A stretch of 64,000 nt of DNA from assembly GCA_016208085.1 (NCBI GenBank), contig JACQYT010000015.1, forward strand, positions 2,775 to 66,774, written 5' to 3'. This document shows positions 12,409 to 64,000 of the stretch, one piece after another. The stretch is from Elusimicrobiota bacterium (GTDB taxonomy: Bacteria > Elusimicrobiota > Elusimicrobia > Elusimicrobiales > UBA9959). Position 1 is the first letter of the stretch. Each line of letters begins with the position of its first letter. The position numbers were made by a program, and so were the translations under genes. The notes below the pieces were generated by a model. The model saw only the letters and a program-made list of their open reading frames with translations. It had not been told where the DNA came from and ran no database searches.

Positions 12409-12418
12409 GAAAATACCA

Positions 12419-14693: not shown

Positions 14694-14704
14694 GGAGTTA
14701 GCCT

Positions 14705-27120: not shown

Positions 27121-27197
27121 CAGGGAAAAGGCTGAAGGATAAGCTTAAGGCTGAAGGGCATGAGGAGAAAAGAAAAGTATTTAAGGTGAATACTTTT

Positions 27198-30764: not shown

Positions 30765-30906
30765 GGTAGAAGGGAAAAGGTAGAGGGGAGAGGAAGAAAG
30801 AGTTGGCGGATTTATGCATATTTCCAATTATAAAAGGGAACATATTCTTGTCCCGGCATTTCTGCTGGTTTTTACCCTCTCCTTTCTAACCTCTACCCTC
30901 TACCCT
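30762..30906 (+). repeat. Class A word hairpin spanning the protease stop and the PorV-like start
   Basis: G-arm 30762-30797 begins with the TAG stop. The loop holds ATG 30814. C-arm 30873-30906 encodes FTLSFLTSTLYP of the signal peptide. Confidence 0.7.
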
Positions 30907-33992: not shown

Positions 33993-34730
33993 TTACTTTT
34001 TATCGCGCTTTTCAAGCCTGTCTTTTATCCGCTTTTCACGGGCCCTTAATTTTTTATCCTGCTCGTTAAGAAAATCGTCTATATAGCCTTCCCGGGCCGC
34101 CAATTTCCGGCGAAGCGTGTCGGCGTATTTCTGAAGCTTGACATAACGCCGCTGTTCCGCCTGCATAAACTTTGAAAAACGTCCGCTTACTTTCACTTCG
34201 GCGTCGGCGCCCACCAGCGCCTCTTTTCCGGGATTCAGGCTTGTTTCCTTTCCGGCCGCCGTTACGTCCAGCGCGCCCTCAAAAAGGCCTATATTGGAAA
34301 TGTCCGATGAGACCACGATGGTAAAGCTTGTCCCGCGCACCGCGCACACGGCCCGCGGAGTTTTCACTTCAAGTCTGGAAATTTTTTCCTTCAGCTTGGG
34401 GATCAGCCACATTATTTTGCCCTTTATCAGATTGAAGACGTAATTGCGCCCGTCTTTTTCAAGCTTCAGCGTTTCCACCACGGTTTCGGAATTACTATCA
34501 AGGTCGATCAAGGTGCCGTCCCCGGCGAGGATTTTACAGAAACCTTTCGCCCCGGTCTTTACGCGCGAGCCTTCTTTAAGCGGCGCCGGTTTAGCCAGGG
34601 TCTGCCAGACGGCGGAACCCGGCTCAAGCAGGAGCACCGGGCCTTTGTATTCATAGACGCATGCCGTTTCCGCCCGGCATAAACCCGTCAAAAACCCCGT
34701 CAGCATAAGCGCGGCCAGAATTCTTTTCAT
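33993..34730 (-). CDS. FecR-domain protein (secreted)
   Basis: Start at MKRILAALMLTGFLTGLCRA with a GGAGGC RBS; FecR-like LKEGSRVKTGAKGFCKILAGDGTLIDLDSNSETVV; basic coiled C-terminus. Confidence 0.65.
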   Translation of the reverse strand: MKRILAALMLTGFLTGLCRAETACVYEYKGPVLLLEPGSAVWQTLAKPAPLKEGSRVKTGAKGFCKILAGDGTLIDLDSNSETVVETLKLEKDGRNYVFNLIKGKIMWLIPKLKEKISRLEVKTPRAVCAVRGTSFTIVVSSDISNIGLFEGALDVTAAGKETSLNPGKEALVGADAEVKVSGRFSKFMQAEQRRYVKLQKYADTLRRKLAAREGYIDDFLNEQDKKLRAREKRIKDRLEKRDKK

Positions 34731-34839
34731 TTTGCCTCCAGAAATTAGCAATCCTTTTTTAACAATTAAAATATACAATATATGAAGCGCTAATAAAAAC
34801 GGCACCAGCAGGCGGTCAAATTTCCTGGGAGAAGAATCC

Positions 34840-35694
34840 GTGAACTTTTTCAGATTACGCATAACAAATACGCTGCTGGTCCTGCTTATAGGCCTCATCC
34901 TCGGCTATCTCATAAAAGATCGCCTGGGCACGAAGGAAGCGGATCGTTATATCCCCATATATCCCCGCGGCCATATTGCGGCTAAACCGGCCCCGGACGA
35001 TAGTTTTGAAACCCTGGCCGCAAAAGATCCGGCGGCCGGCGACCGCTGGATGTCCGCTTCAACCGGGAGCCGGGCGGTTTCACCCCGGGCGAAAACCAGG
35101 GAGACCGCGGAGGATTTCGTTCTGCCGGTCAAGCCCGGGCCCGAAGCGGATTATGATATTACCTATAGCCGAAGCGATTTTCAGACCAGCGCCGGATTCA
35201 CGGGACCGTCTCAGGCCTATGGCGGCGCCGTATCAGGGCCTATGGCCTTCGGACGGCCAAAAACCTCCGGCCTGCAACCCTCCACAGGGGCCGCCCCGCA
35301 AACCCCCGGGGCCGCGGACGGGCCGCCGGCCAGGGCCGCCGACGCGGAAAATAAAGACGACGTAGTCAAAAACGCTGAAGAGGGTTTCTTTAAAAATCCG
35401 GAGCGCTACGCCGCGCAGGACCTTGAGCTGGAACTCCAGATGATCCTGGCCAGAAAAACGCAGAACGGCTGGCTGCTTAATTTTGTGCACGCCCGCGGCG
35501 GGAAAAACGTGGACTATGTCTATATGGAAGACGATTTCCTACTGGGCGAAAAACCGGAGCTTAAGATCGGCTACTTTTACAATGTCACGTTCAAATGCGC
35601 GAAAGGAGACTTAAGCGCCGGCAATAAACTGCTTGGGATAAATCCGAGCGGCAAGAAAGCCGCCTGGGCCACCGGAGTGAGCGCGATAGAATAA
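34840..35694 (+). CDS. Membrane-anchored Pro/Ala-rich hypothetical protein
   Basis: GTG start after GGGAGAAG; TM LLVLLIGLILGYLI; low-complexity middle; folded-looking C-terminal about 90 aa. Confidence 0.5.
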   Translation: MNFFRLRITNTLLVLLIGLILGYLIKDRLGTKEADRYIPIYPRGHIAAKPAPDDSFETLAAKDPAAGDRWMSASTGSRAVSPRAKTRETAEDFVLPVKPGPEADYDITYSRSDFQTSAGFTGPSQAYGGAVSGPMAFGRPKTSGLQPSTGAAPQTPGAADGPPARAADAENKDDVVKNAEEGFFKNPERYAAQDLELELQMILARKTQNGWLLNFVHARGGKNVDYVYMEDDFLLGEKPELKIGYFYNVTFKCAKGDLSAGNKLLGINPSGKKAAWATGVSAIE

Positions 35695-37788: not shown

Positions 37789-38068
37789 AAATAAAATGTT
37801 GTCCGACAACATTTTATCCTACCCGGCACGGGGTTTTCTTCAACACCTTGCCGGGGTGGAGCGAAGCGACACAATTCAACTGTATCCAACAGGATGAGGG
37901 GAAAATTTCTTTCCCCCTCAAACTCCTCCTTGCCCCAAGGTTACCCCGCCCGAAGAAAGGCTAAAGGATAAAGGCTGAAGGATGAAGGAAAAACAAAGAG
38001 ATTATTCCGGCCTTTAGCCTTTATCCCTGATCCTTTATCCTTTCTTTAGGGCGGGGTATGGTAAAAAT
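37789..38068 (+). repeat. Composite modular element X, copy 1
   Basis: 280 bp shared with 57190-57531. Modules: aaaatgttgtc-cga-caacatttt hairpin; cccggcacggggttttcttca; gaggggaaa-atttc-tttccccctc; and a CCCCGCCC/GGGCGGGG stem enclosing a class B hairpin. Confidence 0.8.
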
Positions 38069-40809: not shown

Positions 40810-40829
40810 TATAGGGTGACCTCCATATT

Positions 40830-40925
40830 AAGGATATAAGGATTAGGGATAAAGGCTAAAGGACGGAACAATCTCTTTGTTTTCCTGTGTTTTTTCCTTC
40901 ATCCTTCAGCCTTTATCCTTTAGCC
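40830..40925 (-). repeat. Class B word hairpin encoding the C-terminus of 40906..41229 and a 19-codon mini-ORF
   Basis: On the gene strand: gaaaaggctaaaggataaaggcTGAaggATGaaggaaaaaacacag...ccctaa. Confidence 0.7.
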
Positions 40926-41229
40926 TTTTCTCCATATATTGCGCATAATCTTTTACGGCGTCAAACTGGGCGCGCTCGTCAAGGCCGGCTTCTTTAAGCG
41001 CCTCCGCAGCCTTGCCGCTGCCCGGGTAGCGGCCGTTTTTAAACGGGTGAAGCGTCCGGGCGATGCCCTCCGCGGACCTGACCCAGTAATACATGGTGGG
41101 CAGGGTAAAATCGGGTACCCTGTACTGGCTGCTCATTATGACGTCCGAGACATCGTAATAACCGGCCCGGCGCTGGTTCAAAGCGAATCTGGCGGGCTTT
41201 ACGCCGTTAAAAAGGGTCTGGTTTCCCAT
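40906..41229 (-). CDS. Hypothetical protein
   Basis: 107-aa ORF; the last seven codons KRLKDKG lie in the class B element. Confidence 0.5.
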   Translation of the reverse strand: MGNQTLFNGVKPARFALNQRRAGYYDVSDVIMSSQYRVPDFTLPTMYYWVRSAEGIARTLHPFKNGRYPGSGKAAEALKEAGLDERAQFDAVKDYAQYMEKRLKDKG

Positions 41230-42333: not shown

Positions 42334-42407
42334 CAGGGTATAGGGGTTAGGGTAGAGGGTAGAGTTATAAGGAACTCCTTACCCTAAACCCTCTACCCTA
42401 TACCCTT
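42334..42407 (+). repeat. Class A word hairpin after fba
   Basis: G-arm cagggtataggggttagggtagagggtagag; loop ttataaggaactcc; C-arm ttaccctaaaccctctaccctataccctt. Confidence 0.7.
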
Positions 42408-47269: not shown

Positions 47270-48410
47270 TCATGATTGAACCAATTCTATATGTCCAGCG
47301 AACTTTTCCCGCATCTTGGCGGAGGTGTAACTCCACCGAATTGGTCTTGGGTTTTTATTGCGATCAGCCAAATGCCGCAGTATCGTTGTTTTCATCTCGT
47401 CGATGTTTTCAAAATGTCGCGGAGTCAAAACTTTTCGTTGCAATGGCGAGAATACAATTTCTACTTGATCAAGCCATGACGAGTTTTTGGGCAACCAGTG
47501 AATTTGGACGGCGAAGGGCAGCCTTAAGCTTTCTATCCAGCTTTCAATCTGTTTGGGAGCGTGCGTAGGCCCATTGTCCAGGATAAAATGCAAGACACGG
47601 ATGTTTTTGGTCCAGAGACTGGAAAAGATCATGTTAAGAAAGTCCTGGAAGTCAACGAAACGCTTGCGCTCAAAAAAACGGGCCATCGTTTCTCCCGTAT
47701 GAACCAGAAGCCCTGCGAAAAGATTGGCAATACCAAGTCTCTTGTAGCGGCACCTGCGCTTCAAGGTTTTACCTGGACCGGCAGGAATAATTCCGCCGGT
47801 GACGCGCAAAGCCTGAATGCAGGTCTTTTCATCCGCGCAGACGAGAATTTCCCGGCGTTACGCCAATGCCTGGGCCTGCTCGTAAAGATCGAGTACGACG
47901 GTGGCTCTTTCCAGAAACAAAGGGGCGGTCGGCTTCTGCCACGAGCGGTGCTGCCAAGGCTTGATTTTATCCTGGCGCAACCACTCACGTATGGTTGAAG
48001 GACTTATGGTAGAGACAATGCCTTTTTCGACGGCAAGTTCAGCTAAATCCGGTGAAGACCAGCGAGATAACGGTTTATCAAAATCTTTAGGCAGCGTGCA
48101 CGCCAAAGCCGTGATTTGGGCTCTTTGGGCTGAGGGAAAAAAAACGCGGCGCTCCGGATCGCGGCGCTTCTTGAAGAACTGGTCCATTCCGGCACGCCTT
48201 GCGGCATCGGCGCACAGTAACCACGGAACAACCGGCTTTTCGGGCAATGGCAACATTGTCCCAATCAGGGTGTTCATAGGCCAGGACCAGAACTTTGGCG
48301 CGTACCACTTGGTAATGCGGCGCTTTGCGCAACCGGGTTGTATGTTGAAGTTGGGCATACTCCTGTGCTGTCAATCGAATAGGATGTTCGGGCTTGGGTC
48401 CACGAGCCAT
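47270..48410 (-). pseudogene. IS630-family DDE transposase, disrupted
   Basis: Three ORFs: 48087..48410 (HTH), 47858..48358, and 47270..47809 (DDE: FILDNGPTHAPK...HWLPKNSSWLDQVE). Frame change at the A8 run 48137-48144. In-frame TAA at 47858-47860, just before REILVCADEKTCIQAL. Confidence 0.8.
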
Positions 48411-50904: not shown

Positions 50905-50931
50905 TTTATGTCGGAACGCTGGATAGCCCGA

Positions 50932-53551
50932 ATGGCAAACTATCTTATCCTTTTACACGACAGGACGCTGGGTCCGGTTACGGCCGCCGAAGCCGTGGGC
51001 CTGCGCGGCTTCACGCTGGAAACCCCCGTAAAATATTCCGACTCCGCCTCGGCGGACTGGAGCGCGGCCGGCTGGATGCCGGAGTTAGCCGCCGCCTTCA
51101 ACCGCATAAACGAAATAAACCGGGAAGGGGAAAACCTTAAAGACTCCTTTGAGGCCATGCGCGGCGGCTGGGAGCGCGAGAGGGATCTCCTGCTCGCAAG
51201 CTGGAAAGAGGAGGCGGACTCTTTCAAGGCAACGCTTGCCGCGCTAAAATCCTCCGCGGAAGAGGTCGGCAAACTGGTAAGGGAGCACCAGGTACGGTTT
51301 TCCGAGGTCCGGCTCATGGAGGAGCGGGCCGCGGCGCACCTGAAGGAGCCCCGCAGGCTTGCCGAGGAGTATAAGCGGGAGCTGGAAAAGAAATTTGAAG
51401 GCGCTTTTTCCCAATTGAGCCTCCTGCGGGACAGCAGGCTCCAAGACTGGGCGGCCCAGCTGCGCGCGCGGCTGGACGGGCAAACTGAAAAGCTGGACGA
51501 GCAAGTTTCCGCCGAAAAGGAAAAGCAGAAGCAGCTGCTCCTGGCGTGGACCGAAGGATTTCTCCAATCGCTGAAAAAAACGCTTTCCCCGGGGCAGGGT
51601 CCGCCCGGCGGCGGCGTCCCCGGAGCCGGAGAACCGCCATCCGGCGACGCGCAAAAGCTCCTTGCCGGCGTGGATGGCCTGATCCGGGAACTAAGGGGGA
51701 AGGCCGGAGCCGAACTGGAAAAAAAGCTGGAGCGCGACATTCCTTCCGTCTACGCCGACCTCCGCCGGCGCGTCGAAGAAGAAACGGCCGCCATGATCCG
51801 GGAGTTCACCTCAATGGCCGCCGCGGAACTGGCGGACGGCCGCCGCGCCCTTTCAAGCGAACTGAAACCGGCGTGGGAGAAGCTTTCGTGTGCGGCGTCG
51901 GCCGAAATCGACGAAAGCCTGCGCGAGTTCAGGAGAACGCAGCAGGCCGCGCTTGACGAGGAAGTCCGCAAATTCCGCCAGTCCCTCGCTGGCAGGGTGA
52001 ACTCCGCCGGGGCGGAGGCCGGCAAAGCCATGGACGCCGAAACCGCCGATTTACGGGGGGAAATCTCGCTGCGGCTCGGGAAGTACTCCGCCGCGATGGA
52101 CGGGCTGCTGCGGGAAATGAGGGAACGGGCCGGGGCCGCTCTGGAGAAAAAACTGGACGGCGAAATTTCCTCCGTCTACGCCGACATCCGCAAGCGCTTC
52201 GACGAAGAGACCGCCGGCATGCTAAAGGGGTTCGCGGACCGCTCGGCCGGGGAATTGGAACCCCGGTGGGAAAAATTTTCGGCCCTGGCGGCAGCCGAAT
52301 TTGAGGGCAGCCTGCGGAAATTCCGGGAAGCCCTCGCCGAAAAACTGGACGCCGCCGGGGCGGAGACCGCCAAAGCGCTGGAAGCCGCCGCGCTGGAAGC
52401 CGGCAAAGCGGCGGAGGGGGAAACCGCCAATCTGCGCGGAGAACTGGCGCGGGAAGCGCAGGATTTCTCCGTCACAGCGGACAGGATGGTCCGGGAGCTG
52501 CGGGAGAAGATCGCGACGGAACTGGAAAAAAGACTGGAACGCGAGATTCCCGCCGCCTGCGCCGACTTCAACAGAAGCCTTGAAAAAGAGGCGGCCGACA
52601 GGCTCAGACAGTTCACGGAGCTGGCGGCCGGGGAACTGGAGGCCGGGCGCCGCGCCGTATTGAGCGGGCTGGAGCCCATGTGGGAAAAGTTTTCGTCCGC
52701 GATGACTGCCGAACTGGACGACAGCTTGCGGGATTTTAATCGGAAGAAGCAGGGCGCGCTTGACGACGAAGTCCGGAAATTCAGGGACGCGCTCGCCCGC
52801 GAGCTGGACGCCGCCGCCCTGGAAGCCGGCAAAACGGCGGAGGGGGAAACCGCCAATCTGCGCGGGAAACTGACGCTGGAGGAGAAAAAGTTTGCCTCCG
52901 CCGGCCAATCGCTTACGCGCGGGCACGGCGGCCGGCAAGGCGCTGGAAGCCGAAACCGCGGAACTGCGCGGGAAACTGACGCTTGAGATGAAAAAGTTTG
53001 CCGCCGCCGCTGCGGCGGCCGTGAGCGCCATTGAAACCGAATGCGCCGATCTGCGCGGGGAGCTGGCGCTTGAGATGAAAAAGTTCTCCGCGATACGGGC
53101 GGAATTTGATGAAAGCCTGCGCGAATTCAAGAGAAAAAGAGAGGAGAATTTCAGCAAGGTCCTGTCGGAGCAGGCCGCGGAGTCCGAATTCCTGAGCCGG
53201 GAAGCCCGCGAAAAGATGGAGAGCGTTTCCGCCGAATTCTTGAACCGGATAGCGGAGATGAAGGCGTGGCTTGAGCGCACCGCCGGAGAGCTGGATAAGG
53301 CGCGCGAAGCAACTACCGCAGCCCAGGCGAAGCTGCTTGCGGCGGCTGCGGGGGAAAAAGAAGTTCCGGCTCCGGACGGACAGTTGGGAGAGCGCCTGCT
53401 GGAGCTGGAGCGCAGGATCTCCAAAGAAATGCTGGACAGAAAGCTCGGCGCGGTCACGTGGCCCTTATCGCCGCGCTGCTGTCTCTTCTTTCATTTCTGG
53501 CAAGATGATCCCGATGCCCGGAATAGTCGGAAAAAAGTATTATTTTTGTAA
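50932..53551 (+). CDS. GYF-like N-terminal domain + coiled-coil repeat protein, reading frame broken near 52895-52935
   Basis: ORFs 50908..52986 and 52892..53551 are consecutive parts. Start moved to MANYLILLHDRTLGP (50932) by homology with MENYFILLNGRPFGP of the paralog. Three repeat units of about 130 aa. Confidence 0.6.
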
Positions 53552-53587: not shown

Positions 53588-54970
53588 ATGGAAAATTATT
53601 TTATACTTCTGAACGGCAGGCCTTTTGGCCCGCTCAAGGCGGCCGAAGCGGCCGCTTTGAGCGGCTTCGGCCCGGAAACACCCGTGAAGAACGCCGGCTC
53701 CGCGTCCGCCGGCTGGATCGCGGCCGGCGCCGTGCCGGAGTTGGCCTCAATTCTCAACTGCACCCTTACTCCCGCGCCCGGGGCGGCCGCGGCTGAAACC
53801 GGGCCGGAAACGGCGCGTGAGGGCGCAGCGCTTAACGCCGCCGACGAAGCCCTGAAACAGTGGCTGGACGACGCCCGCCGGAAAATAGACGATTTTTTCC
53901 CGGCCCTGCGCGAAAGTTGGGAAAGGGAGAAGGAGAAAGCCGCGGCCAGGCTGGAAAAAAAGCTGGACGGCGAAATTTCCTCCGTCTACGCCGAGATCCG
54001 CAAGCGCGTTGAAAAAGCGGCGGCCGGCAGGATAAAGGAATTCGCCGACATGGCGGCCGCGGAACTGGCGGCCGGGCGCCGCGCCGTGTTCAAGGAACTG
54101 CAACCCCTGTGGGAAAAACTTTCAGCCGAGACGGCGGCTGAATTCGACGACAGCCTGCGCAAATTCAGGGAATTCAACAGGAAGAAACAGCGCGAGATAG
54201 ATACGGAAGTCCGCAAACACATGGAATCGCTCACCCGCCTCAATACCGCCGGAGCAGAAACCATCAAAGCCATGGAAGCCGAAAACGAAAACATGCGCCG
54301 GACGCTCTCTATTAAAGCGCAGCAATTTTCCGATAGTCTGGACGAGCTGATACTGAAACTGCGGGAGCAGGCCGCCGACGAACTGGAAAAAAAGCTGGGG
54401 AGCGAAATTATTCCCGTCTCCGGCTACGCCGAGATCCGCAAGCGCGTTGAAAAAGCGGCGGCCGGCAGGATAAAGGAATTCGCCGACATGGCGGCCGCGG
54501 AACTGGCGGCCGGACGAAGCGCCATGCTGAAGGGACTGGAGGCCGGCTGGGAAAGTCTTTCGTCCAGGATGACGGCTGAATTCGACGGGAGCCTGCGCGA
54601 ATTCAAGAGAAGAGGAGAGGAGAATTTCAGCAAGGTTCTGTCGGAGCAGGCCGCGGAGTCCGAATTCCTGAGCCGGGAAGCCCGCGAAAAGATGGGGAGC
54701 GTTTCCGCCGAATTTCTGAACCGGATAACGGAGATGAAGGCGTGGCTTGAGCGCACCGCCGGAGAGCTGGACAAGGCGCGCGAAGCCGTCGCCGCCGCAG
54801 CCCAGGCGAAGCTGCTTGCGGCGGCTGCGGGGGAAAAAGAAGTTCCGGCTCCGGACGGACAGTTGGGAGAGCGCCTGCTGGAGCTGGAGCGCAGGATCTC
54901 CAAAGAAATGCTGGACAGAAAGCTCGGCGCGGTCACGCTGGCCCCCTTTACAGCGAAAGCTATTCTCTGA
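53588..54970 (+). CDS. GYF-like N-terminal domain + coiled-coil repeat protein (paralog)
   Basis: 460-aa ORF; two repeat units. The last 345 nt are about 95% identical to 53114-53457. Confidence 0.7.
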   Translation: MENYFILLNGRPFGPLKAAEAAALSGFGPETPVKNAGSASAGWIAAGAVPELASILNCTLTPAPGAAAAETGPETAREGAALNAADEALKQWLDDARRKIDDFFPALRESWEREKEKAAARLEKKLDGEISSVYAEIRKRVEKAAAGRIKEFADMAAAELAAGRRAVFKELQPLWEKLSAETAAEFDDSLRKFREFNRKKQREIDTEVRKHMESLTRLNTAGAETIKAMEAENENMRRTLSIKAQQFSDSLDELILKLREQAADELEKKLGSEIIPVSGYAEIRKRVEKAAAGRIKEFADMAAAELAAGRSAMLKGLEAGWESLSSRMTAEFDGSLREFKRRGEENFSKVLSEQAAESEFLSREAREKMGSVSAEFLNRITEMKAWLERTAGELDKAREAVAAAAQAKLLAAAAGEKEVPAPDGQLGERLLELERRISKEMLDRKLGAVTLAPFTAKAIL

Positions 54971-55042: not shown

Positions 55043-56506
55043 ATGCGGATAAAAAACAAACTTATACTGCAAAGCGTCGTTCTGCTGGGGTCCGCCCTGG
55101 GGGGCGCGGATATATTTTTTTATATTTCCGAGCGAAACCACCTGCTGGCCGAGGAGGCTTCGGCCCAGGGCGCGGCGGCCATGAAGTTCTCCAACGTGTC
55201 GGCGGAGTGCATATTGTCCGGGAACGACTTCTTTCTGCTGAATTACACCAAAGCGGCAATGGAGAGATCCCCGGGCCTGCTCTGGGCGGCCGTCCTGGAC
55301 CCCGGCGGGAAATACTTGTTCCATTCAGACCTGACGCGGGGGGACGCCGGGCTTATCGGGAAAAGCGCCTTCGGGAGCTGGGCGGACTATGCCGTGAAGG
55401 CTTCAAGCGCTTCATTCAGGGACACTGAATCCGGCGCCGGGAAAGCGCGGCTGTGGTTTTACCCTGTCGCCTCCCAAAAGAAAATCCTGGCCGTCGCCGT
55501 TCTCGCCTATGACCGGACAATGCTGGAGCATAAGCTGTCCGCGATCCTTTCCGCCGGCCATAAGAGGTTCCTGTGGATAGCGGCCGCCGTGCTGCTGCTT
55601 GGGATAACGGCGTCCGTGTTCCTGGCGGTTTACTTCACGCTGCCGGTGCGAAAGCTCTCGGAAGGCGCCGCGGCCATCGGCGAGGGCAACTGGGATTTCA
55701 GGATAGAGCTGGGCCGCAGGAACGATGAACTGGGGCTGCTGGCAGGGGAATTCAACGAGATGGCGGCCAGGCTCAAAGAGCTGGACGAGCTTAAGAACGG
55801 GCTCATCCACCACGTCTCGCACGAAATACGCAATCCCCTCGGCGCCATAGACGGCTATCTGAAGCTCTTTTCAAGATCTTGCGCGGGTATGAGCCGGGAG
55901 CAGGAAGACTACGTGAGGATAATGCGCTCAAATCTGGCCCGCCTTAACTCCCTGGTGGACGATATACTGCTGCTGGCCGCGCTGGAAGCTGGCCGGATCC
56001 GCTATGATTTCCGGCCTTGCCCGCTTTCGGAGACCGTCCGTTCCGTGGCGGAGCTTTTCGCGGCCAGCACGCTGGAGAAAAATATAACGCTGGATTGGGA
56101 CGTGCCGAAAGATCTGACGGTCAGAATGGACCCGGAAAGGATACGGCAGGTGCTGGTCAACCTCACGGCGAACGCCGTCAAATACACGCCCGGAGGCGGG
56201 GGTATAAGGCTGGGCGCCCAGGCATGGAACGAGCTGTCGCAGGTGAGGGTCTTCGTGATGGACACGGGACCGGGCATACCGCCTGAAAAAATACAAACCC
56301 TTTTTCGGAAGTTATCCAGGGCCGACGATGTGCGGACCCGGGGAAAAGTAAAGGGGACCGGCCTGGGGCTTTATATCTCCAGGCAGATAGTGGAAGCGCA
56401 CGGGGGCGCCATCTGGGCGGAGTCCGCGCCGGGTGAGGGAAGCGTATTCTCTTTCACCCTGCCCGCCGCCGCGCCGGAGCCGCCGGAGGCTGCACTGGAT
56501 GCCTAA
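55043..56506 (+). CDS. Sensor histidine kinase (periplasmic sensor, HAMP, HisKA, HATPase)
   Basis: Two TM helices, HAMP LPVRKLSEGAAAIGEGNWDF, H-box HHVSHEIRNPLGAIDGY, DTGPGIP, GTGLGLYIS. Confidence 0.85.
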   Translation: MRIKNKLILQSVVLLGSALGGADIFFYISERNHLLAEEASAQGAAAMKFSNVSAECILSGNDFFLLNYTKAAMERSPGLLWAAVLDPGGKYLFHSDLTRGDAGLIGKSAFGSWADYAVKASSASFRDTESGAGKARLWFYPVASQKKILAVAVLAYDRTMLEHKLSAILSAGHKRFLWIAAAVLLLGITASVFLAVYFTLPVRKLSEGAAAIGEGNWDFRIELGRRNDELGLLAGEFNEMAARLKELDELKNGLIHHVSHEIRNPLGAIDGYLKLFSRSCAGMSREQEDYVRIMRSNLARLNSLVDDILLLAALEAGRIRYDFRPCPLSETVRSVAELFAASTLEKNITLDWDVPKDLTVRMDPERIRQVLVNLTANAVKYTPGGGGIRLGAQAWNELSQVRVFVMDTGPGIPPEKIQTLFRKLSRADDVRTRGKVKGTGLGLYISRQIVEAHGGAIWAESAPGEGSVFSFTLPAAAPEPPEAALDA

Positions 56507-57179
56507 CGTACTGCTTTGCCTGCGCGGCGCGGCGGAAGCCGCGTCCCTTGCCGCGGGGCTGGCCGCCAGGGGGCTGACCGTGTCCCGCGTGGCGACCGGA
56601 GAGCAGGCTTTGGAATCGGCGTTCGCCTCAAACCGCGATTTTGTGGCCGTTGAAACCGATCTTCCGGGCATAAACGGCTTTGAAGTATGCCGGGTCCTTA
56701 AAAGAGACCTGCGGACCGCCGCTGTCCCCGTTGTGCTTATAGGCACCTCCACCGGCCGCGCGGAAATACTGGCCGGGTTTGAAGCGGGGGCTTGCGAATT
56801 CCTGACCAGGCCGCTGGATCCCCAGCTTTTTGCCGCCAAGGTGGAAGCGCTGCTGCGGCACTTATGGGAATCGCTGCCGGCCTTGAAGCTTGCCGTGGGA
56901 CCGATAACGATGGACACCGCCGACCACATGGTGGAAGTTAAAGGTTCGCCGGTGCGCCTGACCGGCAAGGAATTCGCGCTGCTTGAGCTTTTCCTGCGAC
57001 GTCCCGGCAAACTTCTCAATTCGGATTTCATCCTGGGCATGGTCTGGGGCGGCGACAGGCGGGGGGGGTCCCACACCCTCACGGTCCACGTACAGCGCCT
57101 GCGCCAAAAGCTGGGCCCCGGCGCCTGCCGGCTCCTGGAGACCATCCACGGCCTCGGCTACCGGTTGAACCCCAAATAG
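56499..57179 (+). CDS. OmpR-family response regulator with atypical receiver domain
   Basis: Winged-helix C-terminus LTGKEFALLELFLRRPGKLL...VHVQRLRQKLG...HGLGYRL. ATGCCTAA overlap with the kinase stop. Confidence 0.85.
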   Translation: MPNVLLCLRGAAEAASLAAGLAARGLTVSRVATGEQALESAFASNRDFVAVETDLPGINGFEVCRVLKRDLRTAAVPVVLIGTSTGRAEILAGFEAGACEFLTRPLDPQLFAAKVEALLRHLWESLPALKLAVGPITMDTADHMVEVKGSPVRLTGKEFALLELFLRRPGKLLNSDFILGMVWGGDRRGGSHTLTVHVQRLRQKLGPGACRLLETIHGLGYRLNPK

Positions 57180-57189
57180 CGAATTACAC

Positions 57190-57531
57190 AAATAAAATGT
57201 TGTCCGACAACATTTTATCTTACCCGGCACGGGGTTTTCTTCAACACCTTGCCGGGGTGGAGCGAAGCGACACAATTCAACTGTATCCAACAGGATGAGG
57301 GGGAAATTTCTTTCCCCCTCAAGGCTATGCCGGTAATTGTAGCGGGCGATGTGAATCGCCCTTCAAGCGGATTTACATCCGCCGCTACATTTTTGCCCCA
57401 AGGTTACCCCGCCCGAAGAAAGGCTAAAGGATAAAGGCTGAAGGATGAAGGAAAAACAAAGAGATTATTCCGGCCTTTAGCCTTTATCCCTGATCCTTTA
57501 TCCTTTCTTTAGGGCGGGGTATGGTAAAAAT
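57190..57531 (+). repeat. Composite modular element X, copy 2 (with nested REP)
   Basis: Same as 37789-38068, except that 8 nt (actcctcc) are replaced by about 72 nt containing REP 57338-57389. Confidence 0.8.
57338..57389. repeat. REP element (TGTAGCGG family) nested in element X
   Basis: tgtagcgggcgatgtgaatcgccc ttcaa gcggatttacatccgccgctaca. Confidence 0.8.
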
Positions 57532-57654
57532 TTTTAATCAAGAACGAATTACGCGAATGTATTCGCGACATTCGTGTTTATAATTTGTTTACCTTTTGTT
57601 GAGGACTTTGTTACCGGCGGCGCTGTATACTATCAATAACTGATAAGGAATACA

Positions 57655-59064
57655 ATGCCACCGGTAATTATGCTTTTGTTGTTAATCACACAACTCGTTC
57701 TGAGCGGAATAGCGGCTGCCGCCGTTTCCCAGGGCGGCGAATATTCCCTTTACCCCCGGATATTTTCTAACGGCGCGGCAATTGACAGGACTTCGGGAGA
57801 ATACTCCGCCTCCTTCGCCATAGCCCAGCAGAATCCGACAGGCGAGCCTGCCGAAGACGAATATTCGGCCGCGCTGGGTTTCTACAGCGGGCTCGGAAGC
57901 GGAGCGCCTCCGCAGATACTGAACCTGGGCAGCGCAATCGCCGGTGCGCTGGGGCCTGAGGTTTCCGGCTTCAAGCTTGGAGTCCCCCGGTTGTCCACCG
58001 TTTCACTGCAGTTCGACGAAGATATGCTGAGCGAGTCTTTTGCCTCCGCCATTAAGCTTACCGCGATACGGGACAGGAACGGCCGGCAGATAATTTCGGA
58101 ACTGCCGGCCGGCTATTCCTACGATCCGCAAAACAGGACGCTGGAGATCTGGCCCATAAGCGGGTCATGGAGCGGAAATACCTTCCACGAACTCACCATC
58201 TCAACTTCGGTCATCGACTACCAGGGGCTTTCCCTGGCGCAGGCCCTGGAGTTCCGTTTTGTGACGATGCTTGAAGCCGGCCAGGATAACACCGTGGTTT
58301 CCCCCGACGGCGCGGCCAGGATAATCCTGCCCGCGGGAGCGCTCCAAAAAGACGCTTACCTGGTATTCAACAGTTCGCCGTCGGAAAGTCCGCGCCGGGT
58401 GGACCCGGGGAAGCTCCAGGCGGCCACCGCGAAGCTCCAGAGCAGCAGGGGGAAATTCTATCTGCCCTACGCTTTCAACGAAATAAACGCCTACGATGCC
58501 CAAAACAGCCTTCTCTCCGGCAATTTTGCCAAACCCGGCCGTTTAACGCTTTTCTATCCGGATGCGGATTCGGACGGCCTTGTGGATTCGGCTGCGACGC
58601 CGATAAAGCAGAAGAACAGTTCGCTTTACTGGCTTGACGAACCAAGCGCTATGTGGGTGAAGCTGCCGGATTCCGGCGTGAACGCCGTCGACAGGCAGGT
58701 CACGGCAAGCGTGCCTCATTTTACGGTCTTTGCGGCAGTCGGCAGCGCGGAGTTTTCGGCACAGGACGCGTTCGCCTACCCGGTGCCTTTCCGCCCGCAC
58801 GGGCCTAACGCCGGCACGGGGGCGGGGCAAACCGGCGCCGAGTCCTCCGGCATCACTTTTATGAATCTCCCTTCGGAGGCTGAAATTTCCGTTTTCAACG
58901 CCAGGGGCGAGCTGGTCTGGAAAGGCCGGGACTCCGACGGGGACGGCAAGCATGTCTGGAACGTGAAGAACGACGACGGGTTTGCGGCCGCAAGCGGCGT
59001 TTATTTTTACGTTGTCCGCAGCGCGCGGGATTCAAAGACCGGTAAGCTGGTGATAATAAGATAG
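57655..59064 (+). CDS. Secreted Ig-like (SbsA/Big_5-type) protein with T9SS-type CTD
   Basis: Signal peptide; GEYS repeats; VSLQFDEDMLSESFASAIKL Ig-like domain. C-terminus AYPVPFRP...ISVFNARGELVWKG...ASGVYFYVV...GKLVIIR. Confidence 0.75.
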   Translation: MPPVIMLLLLITQLVLSGIAAAAVSQGGEYSLYPRIFSNGAAIDRTSGEYSASFAIAQQNPTGEPAEDEYSAALGFYSGLGSGAPPQILNLGSAIAGALGPEVSGFKLGVPRLSTVSLQFDEDMLSESFASAIKLTAIRDRNGRQIISELPAGYSYDPQNRTLEIWPISGSWSGNTFHELTISTSVIDYQGLSLAQALEFRFVTMLEAGQDNTVVSPDGAARIILPAGALQKDAYLVFNSSPSESPRRVDPGKLQAATAKLQSSRGKFYLPYAFNEINAYDAQNSLLSGNFAKPGRLTLFYPDADSDGLVDSAATPIKQKNSSLYWLDEPSAMWVKLPDSGVNAVDRQVTASVPHFTVFAAVGSAEFSAQDAFAYPVPFRPHGPNAGTGAGQTGAESSGITFMNLPSEAEISVFNARGELVWKGRDSDGDGKHVWNVKNDDGFAAASGVYFYVVRSARDSKTGKLVIIR

Positions 59065-59262
59065 GGTAGAGGGTAGAGGGTTTAGGGTAGAGGGTTTAGG
59101 GTAGAGGGGGGAAAAGACGGACGAAGATTAGAGCAGACGAAGAAAAATTGTAAAGCGGAACAGGGCGAATTTTATGAATACTTTAACGCATAACAGAAAC
59201 CGCGCTTTTATCCCGGCATTTCTGTTTGCCTGCACCCTATCCCCTATCCCCTCTACCCTAAC
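59062..59262 (+). repeat. Class A word hairpin spanning the CTD-protein stop and the PorV-like start
   Basis: Seven GGG tracts at 59064-59110, starting in the TAG stop. The loop holds ATG 59174. C-arm 59233-59262 encodes CTLSPIPSTLTP. Confidence 0.7.
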
Positions 59263-60313
59263 CCCTGTTTTCGCCGGCAGTTCCGCCGGGGCCACGGCAA
59301 TGAGCTTTCTGCGCATGGACCCCGCCGCCCACCAGACCGGCATGGGGGGGGTGGGAGTGGGGCTTTTTGAGAATCTTCAGAACATGTCCTACAACCCCGC
59401 CCTGCTCGGGATGCTGAAGCACAACGAGCTGGTCTTCTCGCACGCCAACTGGCTGGTTGATTCCAGGTTCCAGGACGTGGCGTTCGCTTTCGCCACCCGC
59501 TCTAAAGGCACTTTCGGCGTGAGATATAAAACTTTCAGCTACGGCTCAATAGATTCCTACGACGCCGCGGGCGGGAAGCTGGCTTCTTTCAAGGCGCGCG
59601 ATTCCCTTATTTCCGCAAGCTGGGGCGCGCAGCTTGAGCGCGTGCACGGCATCTGCGCCGGGATAACGATACGCCAGGCGACGCAGGACCTGTCTTTCGT
59701 TTCCGCCGGCGCCGTCATGGCCGACGCCGGTTTTTCCATGCTCCCTTTCAAAGAGCGGCTCAACGGAGCTTTTTCCTTCGGCGCGGCGGCTAAAAACCTG
59801 GGGCAAGAAGTAAAGTTTGACCGGGAAAGCGAATACTTGCCGTCCACGCTGGATTTCGGCTTCGGCTGGACGGGGTTGCTGGAAAGGCTGTCCGCCGGGG
59901 TGGACGTTCACATGCCGAAAGCGCAGGGTATCTATTACAGCGCCGGCGCCCAGTACAGGGCGGCCGACATGCTGGACCTGCGGGCCGGCTTTGAAACCGG
60001 CCAGGAACAGGGCTCGGGTCTGCGCCTGGGAGCGGGCGTCAACTTCGGAGCCTGGCAGCTGGATTACGCCTGGCTCCCGTTCGGACTTCTCGGCGACACC
60101 CACCACGCGAGCCTGCTGTACAGATTCGGGGGGCCGGCCGAATCCGCTTATGCGGCGGGTCTGAAGGCGCTGCGCAAGACGAGGTACGCCGAGGCGGTGC
60201 TTTATTTCGCAACGGCGCTTGAAGAGGACCCGACGATGGACAAAGCGGCGCTGAAACTGAAAGCTGCGCACAAACTGCTTCAGGAACAAAAGGAGCTGAA
60301 AGAGGCGCCATGA
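59174..60313 (+). CDS. PorV/PorQ-like outer-membrane beta-barrel with C-terminal TPR-like helix pair
   Basis: Paralog of 30814..31998 (IPAFLF...PVFAG signal peptide, HQTGMGGVGVG...YNPALLG). C-terminus AGLKALRKTRYAEAVLYFATALEEDP. Confidence 0.6.
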   Translation: MNTLTHNRNRAFIPAFLFACTLSPIPSTLTPVFAGSSAGATAMSFLRMDPAAHQTGMGGVGVGLFENLQNMSYNPALLGMLKHNELVFSHANWLVDSRFQDVAFAFATRSKGTFGVRYKTFSYGSIDSYDAAGGKLASFKARDSLISASWGAQLERVHGICAGITIRQATQDLSFVSAGAVMADAGFSMLPFKERLNGAFSFGAAAKNLGQEVKFDRESEYLPSTLDFGFGWTGLLERLSAGVDVHMPKAQGIYYSAGAQYRAADMLDLRAGFETGQEQGSGLRLGAGVNFGAWQLDYAWLPFGLLGDTHHASLLYRFGGPAESAYAAGLKALRKTRYAEAVLYFATALEEDPTMDKAALKLKAAHKLLQEQKELKEAP

Positions 60314-61707
60314 AACACACAACGCTCGGACTGATCCTTTTGGCCGCCTTTTTGCCGGCCGCCGCCGGCGGAACCCCGTGGACGGCGCAATCCCTCGAAT
60401 CAGGGCTGGAGACGGGCGACAAGCTTGCGGACACGGGCCATGAGCACGAAGCCCTGTCGGTTTTTCTGGATGTCCTGAAATCCAGCCCCGGAGATAAACG
60501 GGCGCTTACGGCTATGAAAGAACTGGCCGCGCGCGCGGCCGCGGCCGCCGGCGCAAAATCCACGGCGGCCCTGGATAACGCGCGGCTTTACAACGCGCTG
60601 GACGACGCGGGGGTTGAAATGCTGAACGAAGTCCGGGAGCCGGAACTGCGGCTGGGCTTCGCGAGGGCCAGGCGGCTCTTCAACGACGGACAGCTTTTGC
60701 TGGCGTACGATGTGTTCCTGTTGCTTGAAAGCCGCAAGCCTTCCCAGGACTGGCTCAAGGACGAGATCAGGCGCTATCTCCGGGAAAGACTGCCCCGGGA
60801 AATAGAGCGCGCACGGGTGAGAGGTTTTTACGGGATAAACGCGGACCTTTATTGCCTAAACGCTTTAACGGCGTTGAGCAGAAGCGACTGGGAAGGAGTC
60901 TACAGGAATCTTGGACTGTGGCTGAACATTTCCGTGCCCGGAAAACCCGAGCAGGGCGCAAAACTGGAAAAAGAGGCGAAATTTCTGCTGGCGCGCATGA
61001 AAAGCAGGATCTCCCTGTCCCAAATCGAAGAAAGAGGGGTCTCCTGGCTTGTGGACGCGCGGCAAAGTTTTTTAAAGCAGGATTACGACGGCGCCGTAAA
61101 CATGCTGGAGGCGTTCATACCGGTTGCGGGCGGGGTGGAACTTTCCGCGAGGGCCTGGGAACAGCTTGGAGCCGCTTATGATTTCAACGAGCTTCTGGAC
61201 GGCATCGCCAAGACTGAAACCGCCCTCAGCCGGGGGCAATACGCCGAGGCCTCGGTTTTAATAGCGAACGCCCTGGAGCGGTACCCGGGCAGCAGAAAAA
61301 TGGCGGAACTTAAAAGCGCGCTGTTCGAAAAAATCCGGCCGCCCGCGGAACGGGGCGTAATGGCGCGCGTTCCGGCCGCGGAGGCCCCGTGGGCCGAAAC
61401 TCCGGAAGCTTCCCGGACCAACGCCGCCCAGTCGCCGGCCCGGATTTCCGCGGGCGCAGGCCCGAAACGGGTCCGGCCGTCGCGCAGCCAGGAGGAAGTT
61501 CCCGCTCCCGACGCCGGCGTAAAGCTCCCCACCGGGGAGGAAAAAGCAGCGGCCGATTCCTATTATCTCCAGGGGATTTCCGCTTACGCCACGGGCGATT
61601 TTGCCAAAGCCGTGAGCAGTTGGAACGCGGCGCTTAAGCTTGTGCCGGACCATCAGAAGAGTCTTAAGGCCCTTGAGCGCCTCGCGACGGAAACGAAAGG
61701 GCGCTAA
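60310..61707 (+). CDS. Secreted TPR-repeat protein
   Basis: ATGA overlap with the upstream gene; signal peptide; TPR-like DSYYLQGISAYATGDFAKAVSSWNAALKLVPDH. Confidence 0.6.
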   Translation: MKHTTLGLILLAAFLPAAAGGTPWTAQSLESGLETGDKLADTGHEHEALSVFLDVLKSSPGDKRALTAMKELAARAAAAAGAKSTAALDNARLYNALDDAGVEMLNEVREPELRLGFARARRLFNDGQLLLAYDVFLLLESRKPSQDWLKDEIRRYLRERLPREIERARVRGFYGINADLYCLNALTALSRSDWEGVYRNLGLWLNISVPGKPEQGAKLEKEAKFLLARMKSRISLSQIEERGVSWLVDARQSFLKQDYDGAVNMLEAFIPVAGGVELSARAWEQLGAAYDFNELLDGIAKTETALSRGQYAEASVLIANALERYPGSRKMAELKSALFEKIRPPAERGVMARVPAAEAPWAETPEASRTNAAQSPARISAGAGPKRVRPSRSQEEVPAPDAGVKLPTGEEKAAADSYYLQGISAYATGDFAKAVSSWNAALKLVPDHQKSLKALERLATETKGR

Positions 61708-61720
61708 GAGGAGACCGGAT

Positions 61721-62095
61721 ATGCCCAGAATACTGGCGGTTGAAGACGAAAAGGACCAGTTGAACATGCTGAAGGTTTTTTTCAAAGGGGAGGGCTGGGA
61801 TTTCACGGGGGCCGCTACCGGCGCCATTGCCCTGGAAGAGGCCGCCGCCAGGCCCGACGTGATACTGCTGGATGTGAATTTGCCAGACATCAATGGTTTT
61901 GAACTCTGCAAGGCCCTAAAGGAAAATCCCGCCACCTCCGGCATCCCCGTGGCGCTGATAAGCGGAGATGCAAGGGATAAAGAAAGAATAATGAAGGGCC
62001 TGGGGGTGGGAAGCGCGATCTACCTGCTCAAACCGGTGGACCTGGACGTTCTGAAGGCGAAGCTGGAGGCCGTGCTCAGGATGGGAAAGCTGTAG
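61721..62095 (+). CDS. Single-domain CheY-like response regulator (canonical residues)
   Basis: GAGGAG RBS; ILAVEDEKD, VILLDVNLPDINGFE, ALISGDA, LLKPV. Confidence 0.85.
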   Translation: MPRILAVEDEKDQLNMLKVFFKGEGWDFTGAATGAIALEEAAARPDVILLDVNLPDINGFELCKALKENPATSGIPVALISGDARDKERIMKGLGVGSAIYLLKPVDLDVLKAKLEAVLRMGKL

Positions 62096-62170
62096 CGGGC
62101 GGATTGCCATCCGCTCCTTGCAGCGGCGGATGTAAATCCGCCTGAAGGGCGATTCACATCGCCCGCTACA
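62091..62170. repeat. REP element, 1.5-unit copy supplying the response-regulator stop codon
   Basis: tgTAGcgggcggattgccatccgc...gcagcggcggatgtaaatccgcc...gggcgattcacatcgcccgctaca. Confidence 0.8.
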
Positions 62171-62200
62171 TGATGAATTGACATACAAGGCGGAGGGGTT

Positions 62201-64000
62201 ATGAATATTTTTACGGAAATTTTGCAGCGGCGCGCGGCAAGCCGGCGCGGCGGATTGTATGCCGTTGTTTTCGCGCTCTCTCTGCTTTTTTCATTCTTTG
62301 CCGCTGAGATCTCCAGCGCCGCCGTTCCCGCAAAGCTTAACTACCAGGGAATGTTAAAGGCCAATAATGTTCCTTTCCGCGGCGTTAAAACCATGAAGGT
62401 CAGGATAACCAGCTCCGACGGTTCGGCCGAGTACTGGAACTCCGGCGATATGAGCGTTGAGGTTTCAACCGGGCTCTTCTCTATTACGCTGGATGTTCCG
62501 GCTATGAACTGGGGCGCGGTCGTCCCCTATTTTGAGCTTTCCATCGGCACCACGACCCTGCTGCCCAGGGAACCCGTCACTTCTTCAATCTACGCCCTGT
62601 GGTCCTCCACCGCCGAACATGTGGTGGACGGCGCGATAACCAATTCAAAAATGTCCGGGGGAGCTTTTCCCGCCATCACAGCCATCGGCGCGCTTACCGC
62701 AAATATGGATTTCGGCGGGTTCAAAGGCGTGAATCTCGCGCTGCCGACCAGCCCCGGCGATGCCGCAAGCAAGACGTACGTAGACGACGCTATCGGCGAC
62801 GCGGGCGCCGCCGTGCTGGCGGCCACGCAAACCTTCACGGGAGTCAATACTTTCGCGGGCTGGAGCGTTTTCAGCGGCGCGCAGTTCGGGTCCGCCGCCA
62901 TGAGCACCTTCACCGCCGCCGGCGCTCTTAACCTCGCCTCCGGCCAGACCGTGCTGTTGGGCCGCGCGCCCTCCTCCGACCTGGAAGCGGCCACCAGGCT
63001 TTATGTGGACCAGGTCAGCATCGGCACCACCACCATTGCCGACGACCTGGCGACAGAGGTCGCCGATCGGACCAATGCCGACAACGCTTTAACAGCGGCG
63101 GTGAATTTAAAAGCGGTCTATCTGGACGTTAAGAACGATACCACCACCATAGCCGGCAATCTGGCGGGGGAAATGACCAATCGGATCAGCGCCGACAGCG
63201 GACTAAGCGGCCGGCTGGATACCGTCGCCAGCGACACCACGACCCTGAATAATTCAGCCGTGCATCTGGCCGGCGCGGAGAACATCGCCGGCGTAAAGAC
63301 CTTCACCTCTTCGCAGACTATAACCTCGGCGGCCGGCATTTCGGCGCCGGCGCTGACCCTGGCGGCCAATGTCGCCTTGTCGTCCGGCGCCGCGGCCGGC
63401 AACGGCGGCGGGATAGCGGTTTCAACCAATGTATACATAATCGGTTTTGCGTCCGCGACCAAATACTACGGCGACGGTTCCGGCCTGACAGGCATAAGCG
63501 CGGGCGTTGGGCACCGCCGCCAACCTCGGCATCGGAACCACTGCACCGGGAGCCAAACTGGATATCGCGGGCGTAGCAAGGATAACCACGGCCGACAACC
63601 CTCCGACATCCGGCGCCGGTTTAGAGTTCCAATACAATGCAAGCATAGGAGATATCTCGTCCCGCGACAGGGATATTCCAACTCTTAAAGCCTTAAGACT
63701 AAGAGGAGACAAAATTATACTGGAACCCACCGGCAATATCGGCATCGGGATGACGACCCCGGCAGCCAAACTGGATATTGCGGGCGCCTCAAGGATAACC
63801 GCTTCCGACAATACTCCCGCAACAGGCGCCGGCCTGGAGCTTCTATACGATTCATCTACCGGCGGGGATATCGCGGCCCGCGATAGAGAAAGCGCAGTTT
63901 TTAGGGATTTAAAATTGAGGGGGGATAAAATAATTCTGATCCCCACAAGCAATGTCGGCATCGGGACGACCAATCCCCAAGCGAAATTGGATGTTACAGG
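62201..64000 (+). CDS. Second fibre protein (paralog of 7308..11333); frame broken at about 63498-63512; continues past the window end
   Basis: Signal peptide; LNYQGMLKANN...PREPVTSSIYAL module. After the shift, the other frame reads TAANLGIGTTAPGAKLDIAG...GNIGIGMTTPAAKLDIAG...SNVGIGTTNPQAKLDVT with no stop up to 64000. Confidence 0.75.

Follow-up and report, generated by a model that had tools for sequence, protein, structure and literature searches.

Barrels of the PorV family bind type IX secretion system (T9SS) C-terminal domains (CTDs) and hold PorU and PorZ at the cell surface, and PorP/SprF barrels hold type-B CTD adhesins that are encoded next to them (PMC5562754, PMC10947112, PMC9143113, PMC12618676). 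A barrel of the FadL type, BamG, anchors a surface lipoprotein (PMC12611786), and the small CTD protein PorA, to which a PorV-type barrel binds, has its CTD read by the sensor kinase PorY (PMC12152298). For another class of surface structure, the MAT fibres of Bdellovibrio bacteriovorus, at least part of the published account states that the surface partner of the N-terminal domain is unidentified (Caulton et al. 2024, PMC10769870). The locus described here, which lies towards the end of a 64-kb stretch of Elusimicrobiota DNA (64,000 nucleotides of contig JACQYT010000015.1, referred to throughout as the window), brings elements reminiscent of all of these together: a secreted CTD protein (g1), a PorV/PorQ-family barrel with a TPR tail (g2), a secreted TPR protein (g3), a single-domain CheY (g4) and a tail-fibre-like, MAT-like protein (g5), together with a sensor histidine kinase and an OmpR-type regulator. 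The reading that we favour, with a probability of roughly 40%, is that this locus would serve to display a tail-fibre-like adhesin on the outer membrane, the barrel holding g1 and g1 docking the fibre; it is proposed because the fibres have no CTD while a CTD protein sits beside them.

The combination of CTD protein, TPR-tailed barrel, TPR partner, kinase with receivers and MAT-like fibre is deeply conserved and is new as far as the literature searched is concerned; those searches found no description of the cluster, in agreement with the statement in the preliminary description of this DNA that no described system has this composition, and the individual parts have clear precedents. The domain matches themselves are not new, since the NCBI pipeline already labels such proteins in Elusimicrobiota.

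The preliminary description, which was made from the letters alone, had listed five co-oriented genes at 57655–64000, one pair of them with an ATGA overlap, and this layout is confirmed from the open reading frames (ORFs). Its domain calls were all borne out as well, the profile scores passing or approaching the curated cut-offs. All on the forward strand, the genes are g1 (57655–59064, 469 aa; Big_5, CHU_C and TIGR04183), g2 (59174–60313, 379 aa; NF033709), g3 (60310–61707, 465 aa; TPR_2), whose start makes the ATGA overlap with g2, g4 (61721–62095, 124 aa; Response_reg) and g5 (62201–64000, running off the window end; matched by the phage family phrog_9942). Upstream on the same strand lie the kinase gene (55043–56506; Pfam HAMP, HisKA and HATPase_c) and, overlapping its stop by 8 nt, that of an OmpR-type regulator with a degenerate receiver (56499–57179; Trans_reg_C and Response_reg).

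Seven genes, those for the kinase, the atypical OmpR-type regulator and g1 to g5, travel together in Elusimicrobiota metagenome-assembled genomes (MAGs) at identities of 27–79%, and because this seven-gene set recurs, the kinase and the OmpR-type regulator belong to the unit, which is larger than five genes. The tie between the kinase at 55043 and the locus, made at first from adjacency, is thereby upheld, along with a regulator that had not been listed. Conservation of the neighbourhood in related genomes had been named beforehand as a test, and the cluster turns out to be kept far beyond close relatives, down to 27–35% identity. (Homologous loci collected for comparison are numbered L004–L028 in what follows, and individual homologous proteins are given P-numbers.) In L004, L005, L007 and L008 (49–79%) the order starts with a large GYF/coiled-coil protein, after which come kinase, OmpR-type regulator, g1, barrel, TPR protein, CheY and fibre; in the deep clade formed by L010, L015, L017 and L019 (27–35%, groundwater Elusimicrobia MAGs), where several gene junctions overlap, it is OmpR-type regulator, g1, barrel, TPR protein, kinase, CheY and fibre. 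At the cut end of L010 a 45-aa fragment opens with a signal peptide followed by 'VPQRILYQGTLRQ', which is the motif of the N-terminal module of the fibres (the N-module, described below).

Other arrangements occur as well. L026 has g1, barrel, a small TPR-like protein and a fibre of 2141 aa, while L024 and L028 have barrel, g1, a short N-module protein with a small tip (a phage tail collar domain in L024), TPR protein, kinase and a receiver::sigma-70 fusion, and in L025 and L027 N-module fibres and a giant fibre come after a short g1 from which the Ig domain is missing. The core is g1, the barrel, the TPR protein and a gene with the fibre N-module. Using local hidden Markov models (HMMs), exactly one N-module gene was found within 5 kb in 9/9 g1-type loci with enough downstream DNA, and the same holds for both CTD-protein sites of this kind in the window. 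The L024 variant (JGI 3300017988, peat or soil; 4175–18412) lies among ParB, RadC, ORF6N and phage-type integrase genes, which hints that it can sit on a mobile element.

The second of these window sites, at 6716–11333 on the forward strand, consists of a paralogous small CTD protein of 179 aa (6716–7255), made up of a hairpin-repeat N-terminal part and a CTD, followed by a complete paralogous fibre of 1341 aa (7308–11333) that has an N-module as in g5 and no CTD. The recurrence of the CTD protein and fibre pair, noticed from the first inspection, holds up under comparison: the two fibre N-modules are 30% identical over 126 aa (E 4e-12) and the two CTDs 32% identical (E 1e-12), the small protein passing TIGR04183 with 29.7 bits against a cut-off of 23. 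An alternative identity for the 179-aa protein, as the pilus tip pilin PamT of the candidate phyla radiation (CPR), was rejected, the NCBIfam match being not significant (19 bits where the cut-off is 240, E 5.6e-4).

In g1 itself a signal peptide is followed by a hairpin-repeat segment with GxYS motifs (~20–95), which is common to the N-termini of g1-family proteins, a Big_5 Ig-like domain (~100–205), a middle β-sandwich with one helix (~210–365) and a T9SS-like CTD (~370–469). Scores above cut-off (given in brackets) were obtained for Big_5 at 28.1 bits (23.6), for the T9SS type A sorting domain TIGR04183 at 28.2 (23) and for CHU_C at 28.9 (27), the last of which is the model for the gliding-motility-type T9SS C-terminal signal, the type-B class. 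An AlphaFold2 (AF2) model built with 61 homologs gave a pLDDT of 87.8 and a pTM of 0.77; its hairpin-repeat segment is poorly ordered, and the CTD forms a β-sandwich with a pLDDT of ~95. The top fold matches of this model in the PDB were PorZ (5m11, E 1e-8) and PorU (6za2_A, E 4e-7), with low global TM-scores, as is explained by the multi-domain make-up of the proteins. A word-indexed search yielded 92 g1 relatives at E <= 0.001, the window's own being counted, one of which is named by NCBI 'T9SS type A sorting domain-containing protein [Elusimicrobiota]'.

The barrel g2 scores 139.4 bits against the PorV/PorQ family NF033709 (cut-off 90) over residues ~41–318, and matches the PorV chain 6h3i_F in the PDB with E 2e-14; it falls below the equivalog cut-offs for PorQ (NF033711, 112.3 against 220) and PorV (NF033710, 66.9 against 250). 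Its orthologs in other cassettes behave in the same way, with 108–195 bits for NF033709, all of them under both equivalog cut-offs and every one scoring higher for PorQ than for PorV. Neither of the two barrels in the window (the second is described below) matched the PorP_SprF profile, and neither matched DUF560, among the Pfam and NCBIfam profiles. A barrel from a contig labelled 'uncultured Elusimicrobiaceae bacterium' is 78% identical to g2, and the more distant relatives all come from Elusimicrobiota MAGs, which places the source of the DNA in Elusimicrobiota. The label 'PorV/PorQ family' is already applied to proteins of Elusimicrobiota by the NCBI pipeline. The tail of g2 (~320–379; profile positions 336–382) matches consensus TPR proteins and amounts to a single TPR, kept down to the 30%-identity ortholog P0009; it is presumably periplasmic. 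As for g3, it has a signal peptide that lacks the lipobox Cys, a disordered Pro/Ala-rich linker (~345–410) and a terminal TPR at 415–448 (TPR_2, 34.7 bits against a cut-off of 27), which is the only part conserved in the deep orthologs (42–45% over 45–47 aa). The overlap of the TPR gene with the barrel gene is seen in L007, L010 and L026 as well.

Another account of the locus is that a complete T9SS, with SprA, PorK/L/M/N, PorU and the other components, is encoded elsewhere in the genome, g1 is one of its CTD cargos, g2 is a private PorV-like shuttle, and the fibre and two-component genes are co-regulated neighbours. The NCBI name of the g1 relative just mentioned favours it, and encoding of a cognate shuttle beside its cargo is established for type-B CTDs (PMC12618676). 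Adjacent genes for a CTD cargo and a PorV/PorQ-family barrel are likewise present in FCB-group phyla, the group said to contain the T9SS, namely in Ignavibacteria (L018, 5113–12310, two tandem pairs), KSB1 (L020, 7894–10909) and Zixibacteria (L021, 6087–11776), as well as on an unassigned JGI contig (L013, 19–3419), a distribution suggesting that type-A-like CTDs widely have private PorV-like shuttles; searched with the local HMMs, none of the three FCB-group loci has an N-module gene. On the other side of the balance, the SprA translocon has been called FCB-specific (PMC12611786) and the T9SS is described as limited to Bacteroidota (PMC11611037), and Elusimicrobiota fall outside both; the literature searches found no report linking Elusimicrobia to a T9SS; and no T9SS core family appeared in Pfam scans of ~48 window ORFs, as the preliminary description had said, or in the Pfam lists of the compared Elusimicrobiota loci. 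Moreover, this account leaves the strict co-occurrence with the N-module, and the embedded kinase and regulators, unexplained. We regard it as rather unlikely. Either way, a CTD signal together with a PorV/PorQ barrel in a phylum without a reported T9SS would mean that the range of the T9SS is wider than described or that CTD–barrel recognition works alone.

In the fibre g5 a signal peptide is followed by the N-module, a β-sandwich of ~115 aa (residues ~38–150, 62306–62650), and then by a shaft with YGDGSGLTGI and GIGTTxPxAKLD repeats; the paralogous fibre has its N-module at residues 25–138 (local N-module HMM, E 3e-41), and GIGT..KLDV motifs occur at 8037, 8592, 9492, 63525, 63738 and 63954. 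Neither fibre matched any Pfam or NCBIfam family above cut-off. The repeat part of g5 matches the phage tail-fibre family phrog_9942 (E 6e-12), and the complete fibre ortholog of L019 (14760–17588) matches two tail-fibre PHROGs and the Bdellovibrio protein Bd2133 (PDB 8ond_A, E 2e-5); neither fibre of the window had a significant sequence match in the PDB. There is a frame break in g5 at ~63500–63506, where the frame opened at 62201 turns to junk, stopping at 63688, and the true continuation opens at 63498, all of which would be explained if a GGG run in the region 63497–63510 contained a single surplus base. Since the source gene call also ends at 495 aa (P0018), the break lies in the assembly; it may be a sequencing error, a real pseudogene or a slippage site.

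The N-module is covered by no Pfam family. Its AF2 model is a seven-strand β-sandwich with a core pLDDT above 90, for which a Foldseek search gave no PDB match with an E under 1e-3 and a single marginal match of viral origin, and profile searches gave no significant PDB match either, only spurious ones to gp41. An exhaustive search with a two-sequence profile gave 16,198 cluster representatives that carry the module at E <= 1e-3 (903 at E <= 1e-10), almost always at residues ~20–140 of proteins whose lengths lie between 122 and 2658 aa and whose C-termini differ greatly; a word-indexed search with the N-terminal half of the fibre returned relatives of the shaft repeats only. Among 30 matches that were looked up there was no member from outside Elusimicrobiota, Bdellovibrio being of particular interest here, and every named one was from Elusimicrobiota. 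The C-termini of fibre relatives include a tail collar domain (L024), a weak C1q-like match (L015) and long shafts. In none of the fibres was a CTD detected by Pfam, NCBIfam or the local HMMs, and the fibres therefore need some other means of attachment. Giant fibres were seen beside g1-type genes in L026 (5205–11630, 2141 aa) and L027 (14250–21059, >2270 aa, the called product being 3062 aa), both carrying FGE-sulfatase-like (C-type-lectin-like) domains, to which the L027 protein, which is without an N-module, adds a Peptidase_S74 domain found on no other fibre.

Given the matches to tail-fibre PHROGs, and the tail collar domain of the L024 variant near an integrase gene, one might suppose that the fibre has been left over from a phage tail in a prophage or tailocin remnant, the other genes being there by coincidence. 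Against this, a Sec signal peptide is present on the fibre, conservation of the cluster is seen in chromosomal settings with housekeeping genes around it, and no other phage structural gene was found in the scanned window ORFs (the preliminary description had reported none) or among the called genes of the compared loci. With no other phage genes found, a prophage origin is effectively refuted, and we would assign it a negligible probability.

Turning to the signalling genes, the kinase has Pfam scores of 47.6 bits for HAMP, 54.6 for HisKA and 101.7 for HATPase_c, and its topology as read from the sequence comprises a first transmembrane segment (~7–27), a periplasmic domain of ~147 aa and a second transmembrane segment (~175–198), followed by HAMP, HisKA and HATPase_c. 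Kinase orthologs are present in the cassettes, with a different position in the deep clade, where the gene lies between the TPR and CheY genes and in L010 and L015 overlaps the CheY gene. The OmpR-type regulator has a good Trans_reg_C match (74.2 bits) and a Response_reg match of 42.3 bits that begins only at profile position 14; in the alignment of its receiver LCLRG replaces the acidic pair, Glu occupies the acceptor column and Arg stands in for the conserved Lys. It adjoins the cassette in L004–L008, L010, L015, L019, L024 and L025, and the orthologs of all but the last of these share the degenerate receiver, so that the protein is probably an atypical response regulator acting independently of phosphorylation. 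The CheY g4, on the other hand, reaches 71.6 bits for Response_reg (cut-off 30.2) with canonical phospho-acceptor residues (VEDE, LLD, ISG and LKP); its start is taken as 61721, the TTG listed at 61640 being too early because the orthologs are 124–125 aa long. In L024 and L028 its place is taken by the receiver::sigma-70 fusion, which retains the acidic pair, acceptor Asp, Ser/Thr and Lys-Pro. Because g4 keeps the canonical receiver residues and the OmpR-type protein does not, g4 is the likely phospho-partner of the kinase. Directly upstream of the kinase gene are two genes (50908–52986 and 53588–54970) whose products combine long coiled-coil repeats with a GYF_2-like domain at the N-terminus, with a counterpart in the same place in L004, L005, L007 and L008 and none in the deep clade.

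Such a conserved circuit, taken with the variants in which the receiver is fused to a sigma-70 factor, suggests a checkpoint on surface-fibre assembly similar to PorA–PorXY–SigP. It also raises the possibility that the cassette is principally a trans-envelope sensor, in which g1 to g3 would report contact or the state of the envelope to the kinase (compare PorA–PorV–PorY and FecA–FecR) and the fibre would be a regulated output that is not attached to g1. The conservation of kinase, canonical receiver and OmpR-type regulator inside the cassette, and the overlap of kinase and CheY genes in the deep clade, fit such a scheme, as do the periplasmic domain of the kinase, the resemblance of the fusion in L024 and L028 to PorX–SigP, and the precedent that the CTD of PorA binds PorY (PMC12152298). 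However, the core in L026 is without two-component genes among the called genes (~1.9 kb upstream and ~1.6 kb past the fibre being visible), and the window site at 6716–11333 has the CTD protein and fibre without signalling genes. As a full explanation of the locus we consider this unlikely; it overlaps with the anchoring model, moreover, and does not exclude anchoring.

In terms of that anchoring model, the course of events may be imagined as follows. After Sec export, g2 would bind the C-terminal β-sandwich of g1 and so keep g1 on the cell surface, a form of holding that is modelled on PorQ–PorZ and on PorP/SprF with neighbouring type-B CTD cargo, while the periplasmic TPR tail of g2 would pair with g3, acting as a scaffold or chaperone. 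Surface-held g1 would then dock the constant N-terminal β-sandwich of the presumably trimeric fibre, for which g1 would use the hairpin-repeat N-terminus, the Ig domains or the two together, leaving the variable tip of the fibre to bind targets. The periplasmic domain of the kinase might sense the state of assembly, for instance through free CTD or g3, as PorY senses the CTD of PorA, and the kinase would phosphorylate the canonical receiver (CheY here, the receiver::sigma-70 fusion in the variants) so as to tune expression of the locus.

In favour of such a scheme one may count the constancy of the N-module while the C-termini of the fibres vary. The preliminary description had proposed a dedicated export-and-anchoring module, and this is supported in part: the link between CTD protein and fibre is backed by its recurrence; as to export, the fibre lacks a CTD, and barrels of the PorV type are not known as translocons. 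Several points weigh against the anchoring model. The CTD scores of g1 are marginal, those for FlgD_ig (18.4 bits against 27) and Pfam Por_Secre_tail (16.9 against 27) lying below cut-off. The crossing of the outer membrane by g1 and the fibre is left unexplained, and, should these genomes have a full T9SS, holding of g1 by g2 and the TPR pairing would be reduced to ordinary cargo handling. No barrel is adjacent at L025, at L027 or at the window site 6716–11333, and there the barrel would act in trans. As a matter of gene order, the synteny would fit 'co-regulated surface proteins' as well as it fits a 'fibre anchor'. Finally, the homology to MAT fibres concerns the shaft only, and was found only for the ortholog in L019.

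As to how the outer membrane might be crossed, the locus shows no export route other than one that could be imagined by comparison with Slam, i.e. type XI secretion (T11SS), which brings an outer-membrane barrel and TPR elements together with a substrate gene beside them. In such a scheme the TPR-tailed barrel and the TPR protein would themselves move g1, the fibre or both across the outer membrane. The parallel is one of logic, in that an outer-membrane barrel with TPR elements is encoded beside a surface-displayed substrate, and a weak match to TPR_Slam (E 5.6e-4), below cut-off, was seen for the L010 TPR protein. But the barrel is of PorV/FadL type without a DUF560 match, its TPR is C-terminal rather than N-terminal to the barrel, with the remainder in a separate protein, the substrates are not lipoproteins, and barrels of the PorV type, whose lumens are plugged, are known to act as shuttles or anchors rather than as channels for folded trimers. 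A translocon of this kind seems to us highly improbable.

A bolder form of the anchoring model can also be put forward, with a good deal of doubt: if Elusimicrobiota are without a T9SS translocon, the CTD protein and barrel might constitute a free-standing anchoring platform for MAT-type fibres, whose assembly is read by the kinase circuit. Were this true, it would name the class of cell-surface partner for the MAT N-domain and would mean that CTD–barrel recognition exists outside the T9SS; such a platform might be akin to the T9SS attachment complex or be its forerunner. In any case, a widespread N-module without a curated family, tied to a conserved set of partners, is a candidate anchor for MAT-like fibres.

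The remainder of the window, which has a G+C content of ~56%, is an ordinary chromosomal stretch of a diderm, with genes for RuvABC, Tgt, QueA, SecDF, Era, a class II aldolase, a Kdo transferase and heptosyltransferases. It contains a second cassette, on the forward strand, made up of a HEAT-repeat protein (26014–27120; HEAT_2, 130 bits), a 1215-aa protein with an FTP (fungalysin/thermolysin propeptide) domain and a FlgD_ig-type CTD (27117–30764; FTP 27.8 bits, FlgD_ig 42 bits) and its own PorV/PorQ-family barrel (30814–31998; NF033709, 104.4 bits). That the pairing of CTD cargo and barrel recurs around 27198–31998 had been noted at the outset and is confirmed, the two barrels being 26% identical over 349 aa (E 9e-25). 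The same cassette (26014–31998), with an FTP and CTD protein of ~1100–1200 aa, recurs at 25–36% identity in Hainich groundwater Elusimicrobiota contigs (L011 and L012). Just downstream of it in the window are genes for a FlgT_N-domain protein (32833–33906) and, divergently, a FecR-domain protein (33993–34898), and further on, on the reverse strand at 47270–48358, an IS630-like element is split into an HTH_32 ORF and a DDE_3 ORF.

The spacer of ~476 nt upstream of g1 (57180–57654) is likely to be a promoter or regulatory region, and it carries elements that are repeated genome-wide; scans for sigma-70 promoters and for terminators gave results at chance level. It has inverted heptamer arrays, (AAAGGAT)n / (CCTTTAT)n, at 57419–57506, and a TGTAGCGGGCG hairpin at 57335–57392. 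The former belong to a genome-wide family of paired inverted 7-nt arrays, mostly intergenic, of which (AAAGGAT)n...(CCTTTAT)n and (AGGGTAG)n...(CCCTATC)n are examples; other members in the window are at 2091–2189, 5046–5087, 15443–15518, 22482–22568, 24782–24874, 27304–27341, 30873–30906, 37956–38043, 40829–40928 and 42349–42406, and at 59063–59108 with 59235–59266. The last two bracket the start codon of g2, with the second arm inside the signal-peptide codons, and the gene for the second barrel has a similar array within its signal-peptide codons; the arrays could be REP-like elements or translational hairpins. In the case of TGTAGCGGGCG, 8 window sites with <=1 mismatch were found against 2.1 expected (11855, 12017, 14671, 19063, 25755, 57338, 62091 and 62160); those that were placed are intergenic and often form hairpins, and there is one inverted pair in the spacer between CheY and fibre genes. 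The idea that TGTAGCGGGCG, lying upstream of g1 and g5, might be an operator of the cassette was rejected, as it is intergenic throughout the window, REP-like and not cassette-specific.

It remains to set the cassette beside the systems that it most resembles. With PorQ–PorZ and PorV–PorU of Porphyromonas gingivalis it shares the pairing of a barrel from the PorV/PorQ family and a surface protein whose C-terminus is a CTD β-sandwich; it differs in that g1 is without the β-propellers of PorZ, the barrels score under the PorQ and PorV equivalog cut-offs, g2 has a TPR tail, the host lies outside the FCB group, and the g1 and g2 genes are adjacent in one locus with kinase, regulator and fibre genes. 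Type-B CTD proteins with PorP/SprF barrels, such as SprB–SprF (PMC9143113, PMC12618676), likewise have a cargo gene adjoining its own barrel gene, and surface-anchored large adhesins, and g1 passes the CHU_C profile (28.9 against 27); here, however, the barrel belongs to the PorV/PorQ family, the large fibre lacks a CTD, and a CTD protein of medium size would come between barrel and fibre. The PorA–PorY/PorX–SigP pathway (PMC12152298) is similar in having a small CTD protein, a kinase and a receiver coupled to a sigma factor (by fusion in L024 and L028), but the regulators are not orthologous, the PglZ domain is absent, the partner is an atypical OmpR-type protein, and the link is drawn here from gene order. 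As for the MAT fibres of Bdellovibrio bacteriovorus, these belong to another phylum, and the N-domains are likened by architecture, the sequence match being on the shaft of the L019 fibre; as described (PMC10769870), they have in common with the fibres of the cassette a signal peptide, a conserved β-rich N-domain of ~115–130 aa that, like the N-module, has no structural homologue in the PDB, and what in the cassette would be a phage-like trimeric shaft with a variable tip.

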